A stretch of 63,823 bases of DNA, counting the filler, from Folioceros fuciformis (taxonomy: Eukaryota), in the NCBI GenBank assembly GCA_049999805.1. It is 25 parts of 25 records of this genome, joined end to end, with 100 filler letters (N's around TTAATTAATTAA, not from the genome) between each part and the next. Parts side by side here need not be neighbours in the genome. Positions count along the whole stretch, not along the records: positions 7,681 to 9,710 come from JBNGIO010000718.1; 24 more parts are not named here. One strand, given 5' to 3'. Below, in pieces: positions 6,158 to 35,715 of the stretch. The translations under genes and the position numbers were made by a program. Below the pieces are notes generated by a model that was given only the letters and a program-made list of their open reading frames with translations, was not told the DNA's origin and did not search any database. Within the stretch, counting starts at the first letter, position 1; every line of letters starts with the position of its first letter.

Positions 6158-6834
6158 CGTCTGATCGAGATCCTGACTTCCTCAGCCGGGGTCAATACGG
6201 CGCCCACACTCTCGCTCCCGGCGTCTGCAATTTGTTCACTTTCCGGCGCTCGTCAATCGGGTCCTCGCTTCACTGGCACGCTCGTTTCGCGCATCACGGG
6301 CGCCCATGTGGTGCCCAGTGGCGCCTAGGTGGCGTCCAAGTGGCGCCTGCGTGGCGCCCAAGTGGCTCTCACATGGCGTCGAGGTGGCGCCTACGTGGCG
6401 CCCCTCCCCCTCTTAGATGGCCATCTTCATGGTCTTGCTCCACAACTTGCTCTGATACCACTTGTAGGATCACTAGAGGAGCATGGTGGAGGAGAGGAGA
6501 AGAGGAGGTAGAGAGGAGAGGAGAAAAAGAGGTAACATTGAGAGTAGTTGGCAAGGGAGCTCAAGGGGGTATTTATACCCTCTAGAAGAGCTCCCTAGGA
6601 AGCTTCACAAGAAGCTCACAAGAAGCTGCGCAAGAAGCTTCCTACATATTAGCTTAAGCTAATCTAAACTAATGATACTTAACTAGACACTAATCTTAGA
6701 CTAAACATATTAGTCTAAGCACATTAACTAGACACTAATCTTAGACTAAACATATTAGTCTAAGCACATTAACTAGACACTAATCTTAGACTAAACACAT
6801 TAGCCTAAGCACATTGGGCTTTAATAACCCTACA
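6158..6834 (-). mobile_element. Copia family A 5' LTR (6463-6834), PBS (6449-6460, tRNA-iMet) and 5' UTR
   Basis: LTR TGTAGG...CCTACA followed on the minus strand by AG and TGGTATCAGAGC. Confidence 0.92.
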
Positions 6835-6899
6835 GCATGTACTCTAGCTCCTAGACTGAAGGACTAGACAACTCTTGACCTATACTATGATTTGAGCGG

Positions 6900-7300
6900 T
6901 TCCTCATGCCCTAAGTGGAGATAAACCTTACCTGCCCCATGGACAAGAGTGATTCCATTGGCTATTGTGCTTGAGAAAGCCGGTTGATTTCCACTCTTTT
7001 TGTTTGAACTTGGTAGGAGCAGATGTTCGAATGCTGTCAGCGACCACTAGAGGCTGTTCCCAGATACGCCATAGCAGAGCTTTACTTGACATTGGGTCTC
7101 TCCCGCCATAGACCACTGACATCCAGTTTTGCCATAAGGAAAAGAGTGATGAAGACCATACCACCCCCCACCATTGACTTTGGAGTAGTGGCCCTCCCGA
7201 AGCCCATCTAGCCCGAATAGGGCTATTTGCTTTATAACCATGAGGTTCCTCTTGGGGAGAAGCCTATTTAGCCACTTGCCAACTTTGCTCTAAACGCCTT
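6900..7300 (-). pseudogene. Possible highly decayed gypsy integrase (zinc-binding region) relic
   Basis: YGGRD...LWRIW..PLVVAD...WG spacing resembles the gypsy integrase N-terminus; weak. Confidence 0.3.
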
Positions 7301-7404
7301 GTGCATATTCGCAATGAAAGAATATATGTTGGCTTTTATGAGGGGCGCTAACGTGGCATAGTCTGCACCACTCCTCCCCTGCAGCCACCAACAAGCTGTC
7401 CCAG

Positions 7405-7580
7405 TGTGGAGGCAAAACCCCGGGCACTGATTGCCAACGGGTTCCACCTTTAGTGGCCACACTTATCCCACTGTCGTTGAGACATTGGGTTTCGTTCCCA
7501 CGAAGGAGCGATGATGTGGATGGAGGGTCGAACTTGATCAACTCGATGATGGATTCGAGGGCTCCCCTCCAGCTCCGATC
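7405..7580 (-). mobile_element. Family B LTR 3' end
   Basis: Begins TGTGGAGGCAAAACCCCGGG, matching 1-691 in reverse. Confidence 0.85.
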
Positions 7581-7680: not shown

Positions 7681-8858
7681 GGCTTCGGGAGTTTGTGCTA
7701 CCTACTCCTGTTAGCTCTTAACATGGACGCCTGACCTAGGAAGGAGGTCTTCTACAGGATTATTATCTTGCTGCCTCCTAGGCATCAAAGCCCTCCATGA
7801 AAAGCTTCGCTGTGCTCTCCTCTCCTGCACATTTAAACACACCCAGTTCAGTGGATGAAGCTGTCACGTCACATCTTGTCGTGAGCTGGTTCTGTGATCC
7901 CTTCAAACAAACAGACTGCTGAGCTGCTTACCAGACTGAGATGGTGACTCTGGATGCCAAGTTGGTCCAACAGGAGGCCCTGTAGGTGGTGATGGTGGAT
8001 ATGGGTTGTACATGGGACCTACACCAGGCCCGATGTCTCCTAGGGAGCCTACGAACCCCATCTTCTCCAGCTCGCCGACCATGGCCTTTATCTCAGGCAC
8101 TATGAGTGGGAACATTCTTGGCTCAAGAGGAGGGATCGTCCTGCACAAGTCTTCCAGCTCTATCGATCTCAGCTTAGCAGACTGCAGGATGCCGTCGAGC
8201 TCCTCCATCTTCTTCAGCGTCAGTGACAAGTGTCCTACCAAGTCGCGGTCTGCCTGAGTTGGCCAGCCATCTGCGTGCCGAGCTCTCTCTACAGCACTAT
8301 ACGGGCTGGGGTCGACCATTCTGTTCAGGAACGGGTCTGACCCAGCCTTGGCGGTGGCAGCAACGCCATCTCTGATAGCCCGGTTTCGCTTGCGCCAAGC
8401 CTCCACCTTGCAGCCTGTGGCGATGCTGGTAGCTATGACGACACACAGGACTGTGAGCGCAAGCTCAGTATTTATCTCCATGGCTCCCCGCATAGCTGGA
8501 CGGCTCTCGTTCTCCTCGCTTACGCTCGAGATCGTCCGGTCTTCAGCTCAACAGTCACTCACGCTCCGCTTGCCTGTTCTGGCCTTTACGCCTGAAGATC
8601 ACAACGATGACGGGAGCGTAACCCTATGACCCCATTTTTTTAAGAACCCCGTTCCGTTAACGTGTTCGGTTAAGAGGGGGTGTTAGAGTTTGTTACTCTT
8701 GGTTAGTTAACCTCACATAGTTAACGATTAGGGGTTATATTTAACACAGTATATAAGACACAATTTTGTCCATTATTTTAATCAATCATTTTGTTGAGTA
8801 CATGTTTGTGTGTGTTCTCTAATTCGTGTCATACCTTGCCCTTATTGTACTTACTCCA
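7681..8858 (+). mobile_element. 3' end of a copia-like element: decayed RNase H tail (~7681-7810), long 3' region, PPT (8672-8680), 3' LTR (8681-8858)
   Basis: NMDA..RKEVFYR..LLGIK remnant; AAGAGGGGG directly before TGTTAGAGT; AT-rich LTR-like block with TATA ending ...ACTCCA. Confidence 0.6.
7903..8493 (-). CDS. 196-aa ORF of unknown function, antisense within the copia-like 3' region
   Basis: Uninterrupted ATG ORF; N-terminal hydrophobic segment, heptad-like helix, Pro-rich tail. Confidence 0.5.
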   Translation of the reverse strand: MRGAMEINTELALTVLCVVIATSIATGCKVEAWRKRNRAIRDGVAATAKAGSDPFLNRMVDPSPYSAVERARHADGWPTQADRDLVGHLSLTLKKMEELDGILQSAKLRSIELEDLCRTIPPLEPRMFPLIVPEIKAMVGELEKMGFVGSLGDIGPGVGPMYNPYPPSPPTGPPVGPTWHPESPSQSGKQLSSLFV

Positions 8859-9710
8859 TTAATAAGCTATACAAGTGCTACACAACCATGTCAACATGTT
8901 GACATCCATGGACTGCCCCAATAAGCTTTGTCTTGTTCTCTCAATCACACCTTCCATGTGTGTGGCTCCAAAGACATATCCCATGGCTAACTCTCGCTCT
9001 CGCGCATTTGGCTCTCCTAGATCATCTCCTTCCCAGCTCATCACTCTCCCTAGTGAGTTAGCATACCCAAAAGCATAAGAGCCACTTGCACTTACAAAGG
9101 TTGGCCATGCTACCCTTGGTTTTCCCACTTCATTCACAGCAACGTACGGCATACTTTCACGCTTTATGACTTCTTGGGGATGCCTGTCTCCGAACATGAT
9201 ATCTTTCACTTGCACCATTTTTGGCACTATGATATCCCTGCATGCCATTAATGCTTTTCTAGGCATCATGTTTGTCCACATGCACCTTAGTCAATGTGCA
9301 CGTGACCCAAACTGCACAGCATCAAGATATACTTCCATACCCACTACTCCTTTGATTTGTTTGAAGTTGTCCTTCAAAGTTTGCTTCTTGTCAAAAATTG
9401 CCACAACGTTCTCAAGAATGTACCCACATGGCTCTTGTTGATATTGTTGAACCAACCTGATGATCTTTTTCAGCTCAAAGAATAGTGCTGACCTTGGATC
9501 CAACAATCCCCTTCTTGCTCTTGGCAATGACATGCCTTGATATTCCCACCCGGCAATGATCAAGTTTACTAACACTCCCAATCTTTGGATTTGTTCCCAT
9601 CCTGTATGCCTTACATCCCCAGGTAGTTGTTTTTGAAAGTTCCTCACTGCCCCCTCGTCTAACAAATTTGGATAACGATTCCACATGTGCTATTACTATA
9701 ACTTGAGCCT
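8859..9710 (-). pseudogene. C5 cytosine DNA methyltransferase (DNMT3-like, probably retrotransposon-borne), 5'-truncated by contig end
   Basis: Ordered motifs GDVR, LIIAGWE(Y)QG (IV), GLLDPRSALFFE (V), YILENV (VI), GSRAH*LRCMWTN (VIII), ERELAMGY (IX), RQSLLGQSMDV (X); the two ORFs are one frame split by TGA at 9291-9293. Confidence 0.88.
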
Positions 9711-9810
9711 NNNNNNNNNNNNNNNNNNNNNNNNNNNNNNNNNNNNNNNNNNNNTTAATTAATTAANNNNNNNNNNNNNNNNNNNNNNNNNNNNNNNNNN
9801 NNNNNNNNNN

Positions 9811-12141
9811 CAAGAGAAGCATCTTACATTGAGAATGATCGTGTGTAGTAGTGAATAACAAAAGCAATGTCTTATGCCATACACTATGGCGGTTAGGTAT
9901 TTTGTGATTGTGTCTTTTCACATTAGGCTATCTAGCCCTAGCTAAAACTTATTTAACTTAACCTAGTTGTTGACTAGTTGACGCTAGACTATTCCTAGGC
10001 TTCACTTTGCACCCCCACTTAGTCACAGCCGTCAACCTCCACCAATTTTCTTGATCACTTCATTTTCTTTCTTCTCGGCTTCAATGTCAGACCTGTGTCT
10101 CAAGCCAAGTCCAACAATATGCAAGTTATGTTTTTCTTTTGCCTTGGTCAGTAAATCAGCTGTATTGTCATCTGTGGGGATGTAGCTGAGACTGATTGTC
10201 TTGTTGGCAATCGCATTTCTTATGAAATGTTGCTTCACCTCCACATGTCTCGTACGAGCATGTGACATAGGATTCCTGGCTATAGCAATGGCAGACTGAT
10301 TATCGCAATACATTGGCGTCGGCTCCTGCTGCTGGTGACCTAGAGTTTCCAAGAAATTCCGTAAGTGCATAAATTCTTGAACTGCAATTGTGGTTGCCGC
10401 ATATTCGGCCTCCCTAGATGATAGTGCAACCACTGTTTGCTTCTTTGAGGACAGCTAACGAGGTCACCGCACACCTTTATACAATATGCAGATATGGACC
10501 TACGTGAGGTCTTATCACCAGCCCAATCGGAGTCCGTCTTGCATTCCATCCAAGTCCTTCCATCAACCCCTTTCTTGCTGTACAAAAGTCCTAGGTTAGA
10601 TGTGCCTTTCAAGTACCTGAGGACACGCTTAGTAGCTATCCAATGCTGCTGTCCTGGGTTGGCTAAGAATTGTGAGGCAATTGATGTCACATGGGCAATA
10701 TCTGGTCTAGTCCAGCCACTCAGCCATAGCAAACACCCTACAAGAACTCTGTATGGTGTATTCTCCATCTCCTTCTGCTCAGCAGGTGTCTTGGGACATT
10801 GATCTTGTGTTAGGGTAGCCCCCACTGCAGTTGGAGTTGCTACTGGCTTCGCATTTTGCATGTTGAACTTCTCAAGTAATCTGTTCACATAATGCTGTTG
10901 GTGGAGAAATATGCTTCCCATCACTGGGTTCATGAGTGCTTGGACACCTATGAAGAATTTGCAAGGGCCCAAATTTGTCATTTTGAATTCTGATGATAGG
11001 ATGCCTTTTACCTCTTTTATCATGCCATCATTGGACCCAAATATGATTGTGTCATCGACGTACACCGCTAGGTAGGCAGTCTGCCCTTTCTTCTTATATA
11101 CATAGACACTGCCATCAGCATCTAATTGCTTAAACCCTCTCCTTACAAGATATGTGTGCAACCTCAAGTTCCACCCATGATTCGATTGTTTGAGGCCAGA
11201 CTGGGTTTTCTTCAGCCTACAAACCTTGCTTGGGTGCTTGGCATCAATATAGCCTTCAGGCTGCATCATGTATACCTCTTCTTCAAGGAGGCCATTAAGG
11301 AATGCCGTCTGTACATCCATCTGGTGGATGTGATAACCTTCTTGAGCTGCGATAGCCATGAGTGTCCTTAATGATGACGCACGCACAACAGGAGAGAAGG
11401 TCTCATTGTAGTCTATCCCTTCTCTTTGGAAGAATCCACGCACCACTAGTCTAGCTTTGAACCTAGCTGTGCTACCATCAGGGTTGAGTTTCCTCTTGAA
11501 CACCCATTTGTTTGAAATCGGCCTCCTTCCTTGGGGTAGATCAACTAATTCCCAAGTCTCGTTCTCAATGAAGGAATCAAACTCTAATTTGATCGCTGCT
11601 TGCCACTGCTCCTTCTCCGGTGAGTTTATGGCTTCTTTGTAGAATGCTGGTTCACCTAGGTCTTGGGCTGCTATGAGTATTTGAGCCAGCATGGCATTCA
11701 TATTTGCATTAGGCCGTATGTGCCCTTCCATGGCAAGCGGCACTTGACTCCATTCCAGGGGAGAGCTTGTATGGTGTCTTGCTGACCTCCTAAGCATAGC
11801 AGGCTGACCAAGTTTAGGTTGTGTTGGCACATTGGTTTGAGCTTCACCCTCACTTGCATTGGCCTCAAATGTGTCACCAGCATCAGTGTCAACTTGTGGT
11901 GGTGGATTTAGGCCAAGAGCTTAGGTATGACTTGGGGCTTATGGTGGAGGTACTTATGGTTGACTTGCACATGGAATTATTTGCTCAAGTTTAGAATCAC
12001 TATCACTTTGGAGTTCAGTAACTTGAAAGTCAGACATCACACCCTGTCGGCCCCCCTCTCTAGCACAAGCTGCAACCAACAAGTTGTTCTCATCAAAAAT
12101 GCCAACACGAGTATGAGTGACATGGCCGGAGCTAAGGTCAG
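9811..12141 (-). mobile_element. Ty1/copia fragment: integrase tail, RT and RNase H (10032-11830, frameshifted), PPT ~10012-10020, 3' LTR
   Basis: FKARLVVRG, QMDVQTAFLNG, YVDD, TDSDWAGD, CDNQSA, TADLLTK. Confidence 0.95.
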
Positions 12142-13151
12142 CATGGAGGCAAAACCCCGAGCACTGATTGCCAACGGGTTCCACCTTTAGTGGCCACACT
12201 TATCCCACTGTCGTTGAGACATTGGGTTCCATTCCCACGAAGGAGCGATGGGGTTCCTTACTGCTGTGGATCGAGGGTTGGACTTGATCGACTCGATGAT
12301 GGATTCGAGGGCTCCCCTCTAGCTCCGATCAGGCGTAGGACATGCCTCGCTGTCCGGCGGTCAGCTGCACCTCTCTCGGTGCCCACAAACTCACTTCAGT
12401 CACTACAACGACCCTAACCTCTTAGATCTGCGACTTCCCTCACTCACTTCACTCACTCTCTCACTCTAGCACCAACACCAGCAACTAACAATGACACCAC
12501 TACCTTCTACACTTCCCTACTAACTCCTCCTACCCGGCAAGAGACACTAGACTAACCCCAAAGAAAAGAAAGAAGGGAACACACTCCCCTCTGGGATATC
12601 TCCCCCCCACAACCTTACCAGACGCCATGAAACATGGCCGGCCTACAGCACTTGTCCAAACAGGGAACAAGAGTGGACAAGTCGAGAGAAAGACACATCC
12701 TTTACAATCAAGAGCTAGGGGCAAGCCCCTACACCCTGGTCATTACACCTTGTGATCCTACCAGACACTATACAGCCGGCAACACGCGGCTTGCGATCCT
12801 ACCAGACGTTGCACAGCCGGCAACACACTGCAGGTCCTAAACCCAGCAGGGACAGACCACAAGAGCTCATGAAGAGAGGACCTCCAAGAGCTCACGAAGA
12901 CATAGACTGACTCCCAAAGTGAATGACTCCCTCCTCCTGCAGGCTCACCTGATCTTATAGGAGCCTCTCTCTCTCTCTGACTTCACCTCTCTCTAACTTG
13001 AGAAATATTATTTTAATAAGACCACTAGCCTAGCCGGCTATCACCAGCCACTTATTTAAACTTCTAGCACATCCTGCCACCAATGAGCTCCTGGCCCTAC
13101 CACCACAAGGATCTACCACCTCTTAGACTATCTTGAGACTTTGGAGGATGT
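12142..13151 (-). mobile_element. Family B LTR inserted into copia integrase region (longest copy, ~1 kb to the contig end)
   Basis: Matches 1-691 in reverse; copia sequence stops abruptly at the junction. Confidence 0.85.
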
Positions 13152-23849: not shown

Positions 23850-26800
23850 TGCTTTAGAGATGGAGATGATAAAGAAGAAGCTGTTATTTTTAAGATACAG
23901 TCTGCCGTTAAATAGGCTTACATAAAATGGTTCGTAACTGCTGCTTGATTTTAACTGTTTTATAAAACTACTAAAACTGATTAAATTGTTTATGTATTAT
24001 AACCCTAATGAAACGTGCCCTAGAACTTAAGTCCACTGGTGTATGTGAGAACACGTTTATGTACCAACACTCCCCCTCAACAGTGACTTGGTTCTAGATT
24101 GCGGAGCTCAGATGGCTGCCATGTTGCATGTGATTCTTCAGTTCCCGCTGAGTGTCTTGTCGAGCATCTGGTGGTTGTTGCAGATCATGAGTCACTTGAT
24201 TTCAACTGTGAGTGACAAGATTGCGAGTATGGAAAGGACTGACTGAGATGCAGTGTGGAGTCGCCAAGGGTGGAGGTCCCATTGTTGAAGGAACTTCTTT
24301 TTTATTGTGGCTGTTGTGCTCCCCCTGTAGCTGCGCCAGAGGGTGGATTGCAGAGGCCTAAATAGGTCTCCTTGCTGATAAGACCAATGCCTTGCACATG
24401 TCTCTCATGCAGGTGCTTTGATAAAACCTTGGTTATAAGATCTGCAGTGTTATCTGTTGTATTCACGTATTGCAATGTTACTTGCTTACTAGCTACCACT
24501 TGCCTAATAAAGTGATGCTGTATCTCCACGTGTTTAGTTCGTGCATGCAGGACGGGGTTCAGAGTCATAGCTATTGCTGATTGATTGTCACATTGGAGAA
24601 CTGTAGGCTGATGCTGCTCCTCTCCGATATCTTTCACGAATTGTTGAATCCACAAAATTTCCTTTGCTGCTAGTGAGGTTGCTGCGTATTCTGCCTTTGT
24701 TGAAGAGAGGCATAAAGTGGGCATCTTCTTACACGCCCATGAGATGCATCCCCCATTCATCATCATACAGTAAGCAGCTGTGGATCGTCGAGCATCTGGG
24801 TCTCCTGCCCAGTCTGCATCTGAGAAGGAGGTAAGTGTAAGCTTCTGCTTAGGATCGCTTCCATAGTAAAGGCCAAGTGTTTTTGTGCCCTTCAAGTATC
24901 GCAGGATACGCTTAACATGTGTCCAGTGTGCCACTCCAGGGTTTGAGAGATATCGTGAGGCAATATTAATGGCCTGAGCCACATCTGGTCGAGTCCATAT
25001 AGCCAAGTACAAAATACTTCCTACTGCCTCGCTATAAGGTATATTTACCATCTCCATTTGCTCCTCTGGAGTAGTAGGGCAGTTTTCTGCTGATATTTTA
25101 TCACCTAATGCAATAGGGGTTGCAACAGGCTTTGCCTCTTTGAGGTTGAAGCGTTCCAGCAGCTGTTCAACATAATGTGATTGATGTATGAAGAACGCAT
25201 GATTCTTGGAATCTCTCTCAAATTGAACGCCAAGAGCGTATTTCAGCTGTCCAAGGTCAGAAACTTTATACTCCTTGGTCAAAAGGTCTTTTACTTTCTG
25301 TATATAAGCCGAATCATTTCCAAAAATGAAATTATCGTCAACGTAAAGTGTCACAATGGCGAATTTCTCTCCATTTCTTATAAGGTAAACATTGGGGTCA
25401 GCAATTAGTGGAACGAATCCGCATTTCTTTAGATACTGATCTATGGTCTCGTTCCAAACCTGAGCCAATTGTTTGAGGCCATACAGTGACTTTAGGAGCC
25501 GGCACACCTTCTTGCTGTCCTCCACAAACCCTGGTGGTTGCAACATATATATTTCTTCGTTAAGTGTCCCATATAAAAAGCTATTTTTATGTCAACCTGA
25601 TGAATGTCGAGGTGGTAGTGTGCAGCAAAAGCCAAGAAAATTCGGATGGAGGTTGATTTGACAACTGGGCTACACAGACGATTCTCCTCGTAATCAAAAC
25701 CCAGGGATCTGTGTAAATCCTCTCGCGACAAGTCGTCCTTTATACCTTAACACTGTGCCGTCAGGATTTAGCTTCTTCCGAAATGTCCATTTACATGATA
25801 TGGGCTTTCTGCCCGGGGGCAAGTCTGTCAATTCCCAAGTCATATTAGCAATAAGGGATTCATACTCATCTTTTGCAGCTGCTGTCCACTCTGGAGATTT
25901 AAAAGCCTCTTCTATTGTAAGTGGGACTCCCTGCATTTCGATTGCCGATAATGCTTGGTGAAGAGCTATTTGAGCTTGCTGCTGTTGAGTATCTGCAGGT
26001 GTTTCAATTGCTGTAATTTGCCTCTGAGTAAGGGTATCTCCTGGTACGTATGGAGGTTCCTTCCATGCATCTCGAGGAGGCCTATGGCGAGATGATCGTC
26101 TGGGAAGTTGCTGCAAAGGTTCTGTGGTAGGTAAAAAAGGTTCAGGAGTACCTGGGGTTTCGTTTACCTCTGTATGCTGACTTGAAACAGGAGGTTGATA
26201 AAGAGGTGGTGTCTGAGGAAGGGAGACTACAGGCTGAGGGTCTGGGATAGAAAACTATTGATGTACCTCTTGAGATTGTGAGTCAAGATCATCAGGATCA
26301 TAATGGGCCCCCTCAAGATTAAGAGGGGCATCAGCGAATGAGTGACCATAAAGGCTGGGATCAGGAAGAGGAGTAGTAGTTTGAGTACTGGTGAGGTAAT
26401 AGTTTAATACGCTGCCTTCGTTAAACTGAGCACTTCTAGAGTAAATGACCTCTCGGCTATGGGGGTCAAATAACTTGTATGCCTTGACGTGATCTGAATA
26501 CCCTATAAACAAGAGTTTTTGACTTTTGTCATCCCATTTACTGCGATTCGCGTCAGCGATGTGCGCAAAGGCTGGGCTCCCAAAAATACGTAAGTGTGAA
26601 ATTCTAGGGGAATGACCTGTCCATCTTTCAAAAGTGTGACATTTGGCAAGTCTTTGGTTGGGAGTCTATTCTTAAGATAGGTAGCAGTGGAGGCTGCCTC
26701 TGCCCAATAACCCTTAGTTAGACCTGCCAACTTAAGGAGTGACCTAGAAATTTCAAGGATGGACCGATTGAGCCGCTCTGCAAAAGGGTTTTGTGATGGG

Positions 26801-31454: not shown

Positions 31455-33101
31455 GCCAGCCGCCAGCAGCTGGGCCACTGCTGGCCCGGCCACCTGCTAG
31501 ATCGCCTACACTCTTCCCCCTCCCGGCCAGGCGGCTACCTGGCTGCCCAGCCGGATCTACTTGCCAGTCCGACCGGCCCTGGCCGCTGCTTGCATGCTGA
31601 CGACCCGGGCTACCTGCTCCTTGAGCCTGCGGCCAGCCGGATCCCGGCCCGCCCCAGCCCGGATTCAATCCCGGCCTGTCCTGCCCAGAGCGCCCTGCCG
31701 ACAGCCCGCCTCTAGCGTCCTGCCAGGCCGACAGCGCCACCCTGGACGGCACTAGGCTGCCTGTCTACAGTCGGGCCGGGCTGCCTGCCTGCAGTCGGAC
31801 GAAGCTGCCTGTTACCAGGCGTGACCAACCACAACCAGCCTAGGCGCCCAGCCAGGCCTCCTGCACTCCGGCTGGCCGATTTGCCCAGGCAGGTCGGCAG
31901 TCCGATCAGCCAACCTGTCCGCCCTGATCCGACTGGCCGACAGCCTGCTTGGGATCTTGCAGCCAGGCTACTGTCTAGCTTCTTGATCTCGCCCCGGCCA
32001 TCTAGATTTCCTAGCCAGCTGTCCTGATGAACGCGATCCAGGATAGCCAGTCATGTCTGAACCCTGCGTCGCCTGGTTGCCGCTATCAGGCTGCCCCTTG
32101 TGCCTGTGGCCAGCCGGTCCTGCGGCCCAGCAGAGATCCTAGCTGGGATCCAATCCCGGCAGCTTGCTTGCCACCGGCGGGCTGGGCTGCTTGGCTAAGC
32201 TCCTCAGCTGGCCATCACCAGCCAGCAGCCCCTCTACCATCCTTCTCGCATACCTGGCCCCCCTCCTGGCCAGCACGATCTGAATCAGCCAGAGGCCCGT
32301 CTGGCTACGATCCAACGCCACCTTAGGCTGTCCAGCCCAGCTGCGACCAGCCGCCATGGCCAGGCCACCTGCCCAGCCAGCCTGAATCCGGCTGGCCGCC
32401 AGCCTGCTTGGGCCCTGCAGCCAGGCTGCTGCTTGGCTTCCGGATCCGGATCCGGCCCAACCTGCTGCGTCTTGATCTGCCCCTGTAGCCGGCCAGCGGC
32501 CGCCTGACCTGAGCCTCACCTGCCAGCCTTACCAGCCAGCCTCCAGCGCTGCCTTTGGGCTGCCTAGTTCAGATCTGCCTTTGCCGATCGATCCGGCTGC
32601 TAGTAGGCCTGGATCACCAGACCCCGCGTAGCCTGGATTCCTACAGCCTCTAGGCTGTTGGGTCGCTGGCCAGCATCTGCCTGGACCAGCTGCTAGTCAG
32701 TGCCAGATCCGCCTGTCCTCCCGGACCCGGTCATGCAGCCCGCTGCTGGGCCGCCTACTGTTGGTCGGGTCTGTCCCCTCGTAGTGCTGCCTGCCTTCTA
32801 CCGGGCTGGGACGGCTGTAGGCTAAGCTCTTTAGCCGCCTCCTCCAACTAGCAGAACGCCCTTGCTAGACCCCACCGCCAGCCGGCCTACTCCCACTGCT
32901 GTCGACGATCCGGCCAGCCCGCCGCTTGGCCATGGTCCAGCCAGTCGGCCTGGCTGCCTAGATCCGCAGGCCCGCATGCCTGCTTGCAGCCGGCCCAGGT
33001 TCACTGCTGTCGAGACTCCTCAGCAGCCCATCACCTGCCATCAACCGGCATGCCGGCTGCCCATGCGTGCCTCCCGGATCCGGCCAGCCAGCCAGCCTAC
33101 C
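31455..33101 (-). repeat. GC-rich degenerate repeat, internal part of the large LTR family
   Basis: Low-complexity CCAGCC/GGCC units similar to 18084-19278 and 49400-50351. Confidence 0.55.
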
Positions 33102-33201: not shown

Positions 33202-35715
33202 ATACCCTCTAGAAGAGCTCCCTAGGAAGCTTCACAAGAAGCTCACAGGAAGCTGCGCAAGAAGCTTCCTACAGATTAGCTTAAGCTAATCTAAACTAAT
33301 GATACTTAACTAGACACTAATCTTAGACTAAACACATTAGTCTAAGTACATTAACTAGACACTAATATTAGACTAAACACATTAGCCTAAGCACATTGGG
33401 CTTTAATAACCCTACAACCTCCCACTTCAAGGCTTATTTACCTTCATAAGAGAGTGGTCTAGCTCATGCCCATGAGTGTCCGAGCTTGTGCGAATTGCTC
33501 CGTAGAGAGCCCCTTGGTAAGAACATCTGCAGGGTTCTGACTGGTGTGAACTTTGACAAGCTGTACCCTCTTGTCTTCCAACACCTCTCGAATGAAGTGA
33601 TACTTCACTTTCACATGTTTGGTCTTCGCATGAAACACTGGATTCTTCGCCAACTGGATAGCACTCTGGCTATCACAATGCAACACTGGCAGCTCACCCT
33701 TGATCCCCAAATCTCCCACTAAACGAGCAAGCCACATGGCTTCCTTGCAAGCCTTAGTCGCTGCAACATACTCGGCCTCTGTGGTAGATAGCGTTATGCA
33801 CAATTGCAAACGAGATCGCCATGAGACTGCCCCTCCAGTGCACATGAAGACATAACCTGATGTGGACCTCCTGTTGTCCATATCTCCTGCATAATCAGCA
33901 TTCGTATATCCCACTACAGATGCATCTTCACTACCAAAACATAAGCACAAAGCTTTTGTACCATTCAAATACCTCATAACTCCTTTCACTGCCTCCCAAT
34001 GCTTCCTGCCAGGGTTTGCAATGAACCTGCTAACCACTCCCACTGCAAAAGCAATGTTAGGACGTGTAGCAATCATTGCATACATCAAACTCCCTACAGC
34101 TGATGAGTATGGAACCTTATCCATTTCAGCTTTATCCTCCGCAGAACTTGGGCAATCCTTGCTCGAAAGTTTCACATATGGAGGCAACGGAGTACTTAAG
34201 ACCTTCCCCTTCTCCATATTGAAACGTTGGAGCACCTTGTTAATGTATTCTGTCTGAGACAAGTACATCAAACGCTTCTGTCTGTCTCGACGAATACGCA
34301 TGCCAAGAATATGGCTTGCCTCCCCCAAGTCTATCATGTCAAAGCGACCATTCAACTTTGATTGCAACGCTGAAATCTCATCAATATTAGTCCCAGCAAT
34401 TAGCATATCATCCACATAGAGGACTAGAACGAGCAAGCTTCCATCCTTAGCTTGCTTCGTATAGAGGCAATGATCCATATTGCTACGCTTGTAGCCTTGA
34501 GAAAGCATAAATGAGTGGAACTTGAAATACCACTCCCTGGGTGCCTGCTTCAAACCATAAAGGCTCTTCTTTAACTTGCACACCAGACTCTCTTTGCCCT
34601 TCTCAATGAAACCCTCTGGTTGCTGCATGTATACCTCTTCCTGGAGATCACCATGCAGAAATGCCGACTTCACATCCATCTGGACAAGTTCCATGTCCTT
34701 CCTCGCAACCAGACCAAGAACACATCTCAAGGTAGTCATTTTGACATCTGGTAAGAAAATCTCATCAAAGTCAATACCTTGCTGTTGCTTAAAACCTTTA
34801 GCAACCAATCGTGCCTTGTACTTAGGTTTGCCATAATGGGGTATGTCCTTCATCTTATACACCCATTTGCATGGCAACGCCTTCTTGCCCTTAGGCAACC
34901 GAACCAACTCCCAAGTTTGGTTCTTATAGAGCGAATCCATCTGCGACTGCATCGCCTTCTCCCACTTGTTTTTGTCAGTCACTGACATGGCCTCTTGGTA
35001 ACAAAAGGGCTCCCCACAATCCATCAGCATGACATAATCAAGAGATGCAACATACCTGTCAGGAGGACGTGAGATCTTTCCTGACCTACGAAGCACTAGC
35101 GCCTCGACCGGAGCTGGTTGGACTCTCTCCTCGTCTACAAGTGGAGGAACTTGTTCCTACACATCACGATGTTCAGCCTGCGCGGGACGATCAAGTCCAT
35201 CTTCTTGGAAGACCACTCGTCGCACCTCCACAGTTGGTGTAGGCTTCTTATGCATCTTGGTCTCATTGAAGAACACATCATTGCTGCGAACCATCCTCTT
35301 GGCTTCTGGATCCCACAGACGGTATCCCATCTCACCAGATTCACCATAGCCAAGAAAAATACATTTTCTTGACTTAGGAGCCAACTTGTCGCAAAACTCC
35401 TTCGGAACATGGTAGTATGCCTCGCAGCCAAACACTCGTAGATGTTTGTATGACGGCTTCTTTCCAGACCACATCTCCTCTGGAACCTATTCATCCACAG
35501 CCCTATTAGGAGATCTGTTAATAAGATGCACTGCCGTAACCACCGCTTCTGCCCAAAATCCGTTAGGCAATCCATAGTTTGACAACAAACTACGCATCCT
35601 CTCCTGGATGGTCCTGTTCATCCGCTCAGCCAGGGAGGAGTATACGGTGCAGTCAATTCTCTCTTGATTCCCTTGGAATCATAGAATGACTGGAAAGCCT
35701 TCGAGACATACTCTC
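33202..35715 (-). mobile_element. Copia family A 3' half: integrase, open RT-RNase H ORF (33459-35096), PPT 33417-33428, 3' LTR to 33416
   Basis: [53 protein letters not shown] then TGTAGGG. Confidence 0.97.

Follow-up and report, generated by a model that had tools for sequence, protein, structure and literature searches.

The 2,030-nt contig at positions 7681-9710 very likely holds a non-functional, truncated relic of a Ty3/gypsy LTR retrotransposon, in which a DNMT3-type cytosine methyltransferase (DNMT) was located between the protease (PR) and RT. The window, i.e. the whole stretch of DNA analyzed (63,823 nt), was composed of 25 separate pieces (1.0-5.0 kb each) with 24 identical spacers between them (N44, TTAATTAATTAA and N44), and the contig of the DNMT fragment was 7681-9710 only. 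The copia-type genes of the window (RVT_2, Retrotran_gag_2, gag_pre-integrs and rve) were found on contigs other than this one. Because the window is 25 contigs joined by spacers, the copia elements are not neighbors of the DNMT fragment. Thus, the expression "among retrotransposons", with which the first-pass annotation placed the fragment, describes the assembly rather than the neighborhood of the fragment. No Ty3/gypsy RT or integrase (INT) was found anywhere in the 63,823-nt window, and the assignment to this type of element comes from the relatives described below.

The methyltransferase frame and its lesions

The DNMT sequence was read on the minus strand as a single frame of 276 codons with one internal stop (Table 1). 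One tblastn HSP against P0005/P0157 ran from 9680 to 8820 with no frameshift; therefore, no intron was assigned. The frame was collinear with DNMT3A, so that the ORF with C5-methyltransferase motifs IV-X in canonical order over about 275 codons and with no introns, as first described, was confirmed. The motif numbers (IV-X) follow the usual nomenclature and were placed on the frame through the alignment to DNMT3A. With the Pfam profile named in the first-pass annotation (PF00145, DNA_methylase), the frame scored 23 bits (cut-off, 22; E = 6.4e-5). With phmmer against PDB, the best solved match was the catalytic domain of DNMT3A (E = 1.8e-5; query residues 13-142 to chain residues 46-172, and query residues 231-269 to chain residues 236-274), and M.HhaI was matched by the single query at E = 0.24 only. 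Since the blocks for motifs IV-VIII and IX-X are collinear with those of DNMT3A, the motif order is canonical and not DRM-like. With the profile of 13 family members, PDB chains were matched in the order of DNMT3A/3B/3C (E = 2e-20, 76 bits), DRM (2e-12, 50 bits) and M.HhaI (2e-9), and no DNMT1 or CMT chain was found at E<=0.01. The collinearity with DNMT3A and the higher score than that for DRM agree with the earlier description of the frame as DNMT3-like and unpermuted (motif X at the C-terminus, unlike DRM). A search of 1.84 billion cluster representatives gave 631 matches at E<=1e-3 (333 at <=1e-10 and 32 at <=1e-30); the predicted identity as a DNMT3-like C5 methyltransferase is thus far beyond chance (631 matches; best, 4e-43). 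Plus-strand ORFs across the DNMT region (105-123 aa) had no family match and were taken as chance antisense frames.

Table 1. Positions and strands of the features of the DNMT contig, its spacer and the citrate synthase gene
Feature	Positions	Strand	Remarks
Rest of contig, unrelated to the element	7681..8831		No RT, RNase H or integrase in any frame
ORF of 214 aa, no family match	8547..7903	-	Hydrophobic N-terminal stretch, Pro-rich end
TAA closing the frame	8859..8861	-	12 codons past motif X; frame reading
Predicted DNMT3-like C5 cytosine methyltransferase domain, motifs IV to X, pseudogene	8862..9689	-	276 codons including one internal stop
LLGQSMDVN, motif X region	8898..8924	-	Last conserved block; DNMT3A and family alignments
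ERELAMGY, motif IX region	8976..8999	-	Conserved; DNMT3A and family alignments
GSRAH(stop)LRCMWTN, motif VIII region	9270..9308	-	Aligned to DNMT3A SAAHRARYFWGN
In-frame TGA	9291..9293	-	Column is Arg in 99% of relatives
ENV, motif VI	9405..9413	-	Intact; DNMT3A and family alignments
MSLPR (xSxAG in the family)	9519..9533	-	Pro56 and Arg57 instead of conserved Ala and Gly
AGWEYQG, motif IV	9534..9554	-	Tyr codon TAT at 9542..9540
TAG TAA TAG, three consecutive stops	9690..9698	-	Directly upstream of the frame; frame reading
Assembly spacer (N44 + TTAATTAATTAA + N44)	9711..9810		Contig end; motifs I-III and all upstream outside the window
Citrate synthase, mitochondrial-type	51937-53496	+	Intact, intronless; contig 50452-55149

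The columns conserved in at least 80% of 144 relatives were 41 in number; the window copy kept 35 of the 41 and departed from the other six (C50Y, A56P, G57R, A125V, R133stop and L165M). Motif IV of the family reads G-W-[E/P]-C-Q-x-x-S-x-A-G. The catalytic Cys was present in 136 of the 144 relatives, while the window copy has Tyr, and the preceding residue was Glu in 76 and Pro in 49 of the 144. Judged from these columns, the Glu before the catalytic Cys (GWECQ) is native to the family and the Tyr is the lesion. In the Arg pair of motif VIII, the first Arg was replaced by the TGA stop and the second was kept; this TGA could have arisen from CGA by one C-to-T change. Relatives carry motif I about 40 residues further upstream than the start of the window copy, and the contig ends at 9710. 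No match to RT, RNase H (RH), INT, gag or PR was found elsewhere on contig 7681-9710 in all frames, and no repeat longer than 15 nt, as would be expected of LTRs, was found within the 2-kb contig. The window copy is therefore a dead, truncated pseudogene that is unable to work, because the catalytic Cys is changed to Tyr, the conserved Arg is changed to a stop, three stops lie upstream, the contig end cuts off motifs I-III, and no RT follows downstream. For the same reasons, the earlier proposal that the element could self-methylate its DNA is not applicable to this copy.

Other DNMT copies diverge from the window sequence at about 8832, and the element breaks off about 30 nt past the DNMT frame. 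The composition was GC 0.55-0.61 with CpG o/e 0.65-1.2 at 8131-8730 and GC 0.39-0.48 with CpG o/e 0.14-0.40 in the DNMT part. The flanking DNA (7681-8831) also occurred as a repeat in the DNA runs, with a word depth of 35-150 and a peak at 8633-8836. Neither positions 7681-8861 nor the 214-aa ORF gave a Pfam family or a PDB match below E 0.1, and tblastx and blastx with 7681-8861 gave no match to the 80 related loci (see below), the other 24 contigs or the fetched proteins.

Relatives in retrotransposon polyproteins

The best 150 of the 631 relatives were all at E<=2e-20. The search for proteins of near length gave four Closterium fragments only (4 of 469 candidates), and that for longer proteins gave two of 1,225 candidates, a 726-aa Logan protein (43% identity, 99% coverage) and Marchantia polymorpha MARPO_0008s0049 (961 aa, 39%). 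In both, an aspartic protease precedes the DNMT, and a gag-type zinc knuckle is present in addition in the Marchantia protein. The Pfam scan of long representatives detected RVT_1, RT_RNaseH and/or rve in 20 of 22, and the methylase alone in the other two. When domains were mapped on 160 fetched proteins, 76 had the order RT-RH-DNMT-INT(-PHD), 23 had gag/PR-DNMT(-RT-RH-INT), and 61 had the DNMT alone. Metagenome contigs were scanned with a five-protein alignment, and 80 loci were kept (392 pattern matches, of which 86 were confirmed); seed-domain tblastn assigned the gag/PR-DNMT order to 53 of the 80 and the other order to 14. In many of these loci, GAG-PR-DNMT-RT-RH-INT-PHD was found on one strand. 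Note that the membership of the window copy in the family rests on the relatives, to which it is 36-43% identical; 72 of the 80 metagenome loci were matched, the closest at 41% identity.

Direct repeats of 307-344 nt (91-94% alike), about 8.7 kb apart, bracketed gag to PHD in three of the 13 loci examined (L046, L052 and L002), and the remaining 10 had no repeats or other ones. From the domain order in the loci and the bracketing direct repeats, the intact relatives are predicted to be LTR retrotransposons about 9 kb long, in which RT, RNase H and integrase are of the Ty3/gypsy type and the integrase is followed by a PHD finger. The first-pass annotation had proposed a gypsy lineage of LTR elements with a DNMT in pol; the Pfam hits (20 of 22), the domain orders and the LTR pairs support that the DNMT domains of the relatives belong to gag-pol polyproteins of Ty3/gypsy LTR elements. 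The linkage of the DNMT to RT and integrase was found in relatives from other sources; at the window locus itself it was not found, and the upstream part is cut by the contig end. The position assigned earlier to the DNMT, at the end of pol, did not hold: in the clade of the window copy it lies between protease and RT, with the RT starting 440-652 nt after the DNMT in 32 of 37 loci of gag/PR-DNMT order that have at least 1,200 nt downstream (not in the other five). Although not pol-terminal, the DNMT ends the first ORF in some members. In L029, one stop separates a 1,369-aa ORF (gag-PR-DNMT) from a 1,047-aa ORF (RT-RH-INT-PHD) of the same frame. In two nearly intact loci, L029 (976-8226) and L007 (321-6809), gag-PR-DNMT and RT-RH-INT-PHD are in frame with each other and are parted by a single stop, some 110 codons past the DNMT. 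Several of the annotated proteins of Marchantia, Closterium and Logan end shortly past the DNMT, and P0011 and P0160 are continuous. This single stop may represent stop-codon read-through or early decay. Most of the other long loci of the metagenome set were decayed. The PHD finger after the integrase was observed in both orders (P0016, P0021, P0049 and others; loci L005, L012, L027, L029, L046 and L054-L062). The chromodomain of chromoviruses sits at the same place, after the integrase, and the PHD finger suggests targeting by the reading of histone tails.

The phylogenetic tree was reconstructed with FastTree from 145 DNMT domains; 16 of the 160 proteins, with fewer than 200 query residues matched, were left out, and the tree contains no host DNMT3. 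The clade of the window copy (42 tips; support, 0.987) included all 19 of the gag/PR-DNMT proteins; the 74 with the other order all fell outside it. Within this clade the window copy forms a long branch with weak local support (0.04-0.69), and the nearest tips are two Mesostigma and two unnamed proteins, not Marchantia. The named members are from Marchantia polymorpha (MARPO_0008s0049), Closterium sp. NIES-53, NIES-68 and Naga37s-1, and Mesostigma viride, and most clusters are nameless. From the other clade, 'pol' of Scenedesmus sp. PABB004 can be named.

Other copies and the source organism

For the survey of copies, contig pieces of the DNA runs X1-X3 (one sample, one study) were placed on the 2-kb contig at likeness of at least 80%. 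More than half of the words of the contig were present in each of two DNA runs of this sample. No RNA run was among those containing the stretch, and run X4, presumed to be RNA, gave no piece on the contig, which has no bearing on expression. The numbers of pieces at 80-100% identity were 85 (X1), 90 (X2) and 99 (X3), diverged as they are, so that the sequence is multi-copy in the source organism. By identity, the X1 pieces were divided into 26 (>=99%), 17 (95-99%), 27 (90-95%) and 15 (<90%). Loose ends, at which other copies go elsewhere, were found at 8832, 8681, 8941 and 9685. The changes among copies were mainly transitions (121 versus 52 transversions in X1). At place 9541, other copies in runs X1-X3 have C, which restores the codon TGT (Cys); copies with the catalytic Cys, for which a search had been suggested earlier, are thus present in these runs. 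Other copies in the organism also read the consensus Ala and Gly codons at places 9524 and 9521. At the motif IV places in X2, the rest of the depth equaled the one piece identical to the window copy. Two of the three stops of the window copy are replaced by TGG and CAA in two X1 contigs upstream of 9685, and one X2 contig extends 68 nt beyond the contig end. The window copy is a worn member of a family with better-kept members in the same DNA. In X3, the differences on 7681-9710 were biased (G>A at 121 and C>T at 39 places versus A>G at 9 and T>C at 16), and this run, which shares its sample with X1 and X2, resembles a library made by bisulfite or enzymatic conversion, from which the methylation state of these copies might be read.

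The host was considered with an intact, intronless citrate synthase gene on another contig (Table 1). Its best solved match was Arabidopsis CSY4 (E = 8e-223). Among the best 120 of 8,000 scored proteins, the best named relatives were those of bryophytes and a lycophyte (Sphagnum, Marchantia, Riccia and Diphasiastrum; 77-79% identical), that of Mesotaenium was 74%, and those of seed plants were 68-74%. In the FastTree tree with 32 relatives, picked for taxonomic spread, the gene was placed inside the land plants with Mesotaenium outside, and its sister was an unnamed protein, with which it joined the base of the vascular plants (supports, 0.996, 0.887 and 0.875). The host is thus probably a land plant and not a seed plant, as judged from a single gene on a contig different from that of the DNMT, and the land-plant host of the first-pass annotation is likely, since the citrate synthase nests in embryophytes in this single-gene tree. 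The stop-to-stop frame of the gene has Met at residue 45 and a presequence-like N-terminus. Citrate synthase orthologues of plants are generally multi-exon, and the intronless gene may be a retrocopy; no poly(A) was found in the 600 nt after its stop codon.

Interpretation and comparison with described elements

A pseudogene of a host DNMT3 outside any transposable element (e.g. a processed retrocopy) would be expected to have no introns, and the window has neither introns in the frame nor linked transposon genes; the best solved match is also DNMT3A. However, the domains that flank the DNMT in the relatives are, wherever present, gag, PR, RT, RH or INT (best 150 relatives listed, E<=2e-20), motif IV of the form GWxCQGxSxAG is the signature of the family versus GGSPCNDLS in DNMT3A, and the sequence is multi-copy with diverged members. 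We consider this origin very improbable. A domesticated, catalytically inactive regulator of the DNMT3L type retained by the host is hardly credible at all: the loss of the catalytic Cys in a frame that keeps most of its conserved columns (35 of 41) would be in line with it, but the TGA interrupts the frame at an Arg that 99% of relatives share, three stops immediately precede the frame, a start codon context is lacking, and the Cys is retained by other copies of the organism.

It is also unlikely, but less so than the two origins above, that the contig came from another organism in the sample, e.g. a green or streptophyte alga living on the plant, and is a relic of an algal Gypsy-DNMT3, in which case it would say nothing about land plants. 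The window consists of unlinked short contigs, the nearest named relatives in the tree are algal (Mesostigma), and the stretch was found in the runs of one sample only, from one study (possibly the source of the assembly), all of which would be compatible with such a contaminant. Against it, 85-99 diverged pieces were found per run in runs of 213-323 million letters, with all identity classes from <90% to >99%, and so many diverged copies fit the major genome of the sample better than a trace contaminant. In addition, the GC content (0.48) and CpG o/e (0.53) of the DNMT contig are within the range of the other 24 contigs, and the land plant Marchantia has a member of the same clade.

We thus prefer the reading as a retrotransposon relic of the sample's main genome. 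In the intact element, the order would be gag-PR-DNMT-RT-RNaseH-INT-PHD, and translation would yield the DNMT joined to Gag-PR, whether or not RT-RH-INT follows in frame. If it acts like the retrotransposon DNMTs tested by de Mendoza et al. (2018), an intact DNMT could methylate the newly made DNA of the element itself. The window copy has lost this capacity, and unrelated repeated DNA begins about 30 nt past its DNMT frame. The pattern of changes fits a silenced and probably methylated repeat that decayed slowly in its streptophyte host, which is most likely a land plant outside the seed plants, and the C-to-T decay may be due to methylation.

The closest described element is KnitGypsy-Dnmt3 of Klebsormidium nitens, for which intronless, unpermuted Dnmt3 domains in the Gypsy Pol ORF under purifying selection are described (de Mendoza et al. 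2018, PMC5890265); according to the abstract of that paper, retrotransposon DNMTs are able to methylate CG de novo. It was later cited as "streptophytes (Gypsy-DNMT3)" in a preprint (bioRxiv 10.64898/2026.05.21.726589), and DNMT3 in retrotransposons is mentioned in another paper (PMC12344493). The window copy and KnitGypsy-Dnmt3 share an intronless, unpermuted DNMT3-type domain, a Gypsy LTR polyprotein, a streptophyte host, multiple copies and silenced copies. They differ in that the window copy is dead, truncated and in another, probably embryophyte, host, and this likeness is one of description, which covers neither the domain order nor motif IV. Among the matches, most of which are nameless, no Klebsormidium sequence was identified. 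The locus is probably a decayed fragment of a known kind of element (Gypsy-DNMT3) in a new, probably embryophyte, host.

The proteins of Marchantia polymorpha (MARPO_0008s0049, P0006), Closterium spp. (P0014 and P0023) and Mesostigma viride (P0083 and P0090), which are annotated as hypothetical, fall in the same clade as the window copy. In them, a zinc-knuckle gag and an aspartic protease precede the DNMT, and motif IV reads as AGWPCQG or close to it; they are 34-40% identical to the window copy, with open frames where the window copy has stops. The RT-RNaseH-DNMT-INT-PHD elements of green-algal or metagenomic origin (e.g. 'pol' of Scenedesmus sp. PABB004, P0049) have a homologous DNMT (E about 1e-30) and share the Ty3/gypsy RT, RNase H, integrase and PHD finger after the integrase, but their DNMT follows RNase H and precedes the integrase, and they make up a clade of their own (0 of 74 in that of the window copy). 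The host enzymes, i.e. DNMT3A/3B/3C of animals and DNMT3 of plants (Yaari et al. 2019, PMC6453930), have the same catalytic fold family and motif order; they are spliced single genes with motif IV of GGSPC, whereas the window family has GW[E/P]CQ inside gag-pol. Retrotransposons with a captured cytosine methyltransferase are likewise represented by SymbioDIRS-Dnmt3 and SymbioLINE-Dnmt of Symbiodinium and by the EpiLTRs of Cymbomonas and Euglena (PMC5890265; bioRxiv 10.64898/2026.05.21.726589). Unlike the Ty3/gypsy type of the window, those of Symbiodinium are of other classes, i.e. DIRS with a tyrosine recombinase and LINE (PMC5890265), and the DNMT of the EpiLTRs is described in the preprint as sister to DNMT4 and appended to the 3' end of pol (bioRxiv 10.64898/2026.05.21.726589). 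The Symbiodinium, Cymbomonas and Euglena captures are independent acquisitions according to these papers (PMC5890265; bioRxiv 10.64898/2026.05.21.726589).

In the literature searched (subscription journals and supplements lay outside it), no paper was found on a DNMT-carrying gypsy element in an embryophyte, and, within the same limits, none describing Mapoly0008s0049 and the related gag-PR-DNMT proteins of Closterium and Mesostigma. The green-lineage DNMT retrotransposons in print in that literature are from the alga Klebsormidium only. On sequence grounds, the DNMT family is wider, and reaches further into land plants, than this literature says: the relic and the proteins of Marchantia, Closterium, Mesostigma and Scenedesmus indicate elements widespread in Viridiplantae, with two domain orders, that reach the land plants. 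More tentatively, a non-seed land plant may still have a multi-copy gag-PR-DNMT3-RT-RH-INT-PHD family with the catalytic motif (GWECQGxSxAG) intact in some copies. If so, the elements would represent an ancient streptophyte-wide lineage (Mesostigma, Closterium, Marchantia and the source organism) and not an oddity of Klebsormidium, this streptophyte lineage would have as its sister a green-algal one whose DNMT shifted to a place after RNase H, and in embryophytes some members may still be adding 5mC to the DNA of the element itself. Retrotransposons with a cytosine methyltransferase of their own run counter to the usual view of methylation as a weapon of the host against transposons. The sequence set allows one to ask whether an element-encoded DNMT3 activity shapes plant methylomes, and whether the enzyme can be active with Glu rather than Pro before the catalytic Cys. 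The window copy itself is an ordinary dead repeat.

As for the remainder of the window, the Rfam search of its whole length gave no match, and one tRNA-Thr was found at 32292-32383. The bulk of the coding matches was of Ty1/copia (10340-11920, 24302-25591, 33459-35156, 59832-61007 and others). Two minus-strand ORFs on two other contigs (7268-7462 and 11954-12199) have identical first 13 residues, so that the contigs (6158-7580 and 9811-13151) share a repeat, perhaps a copia LTR or leader.
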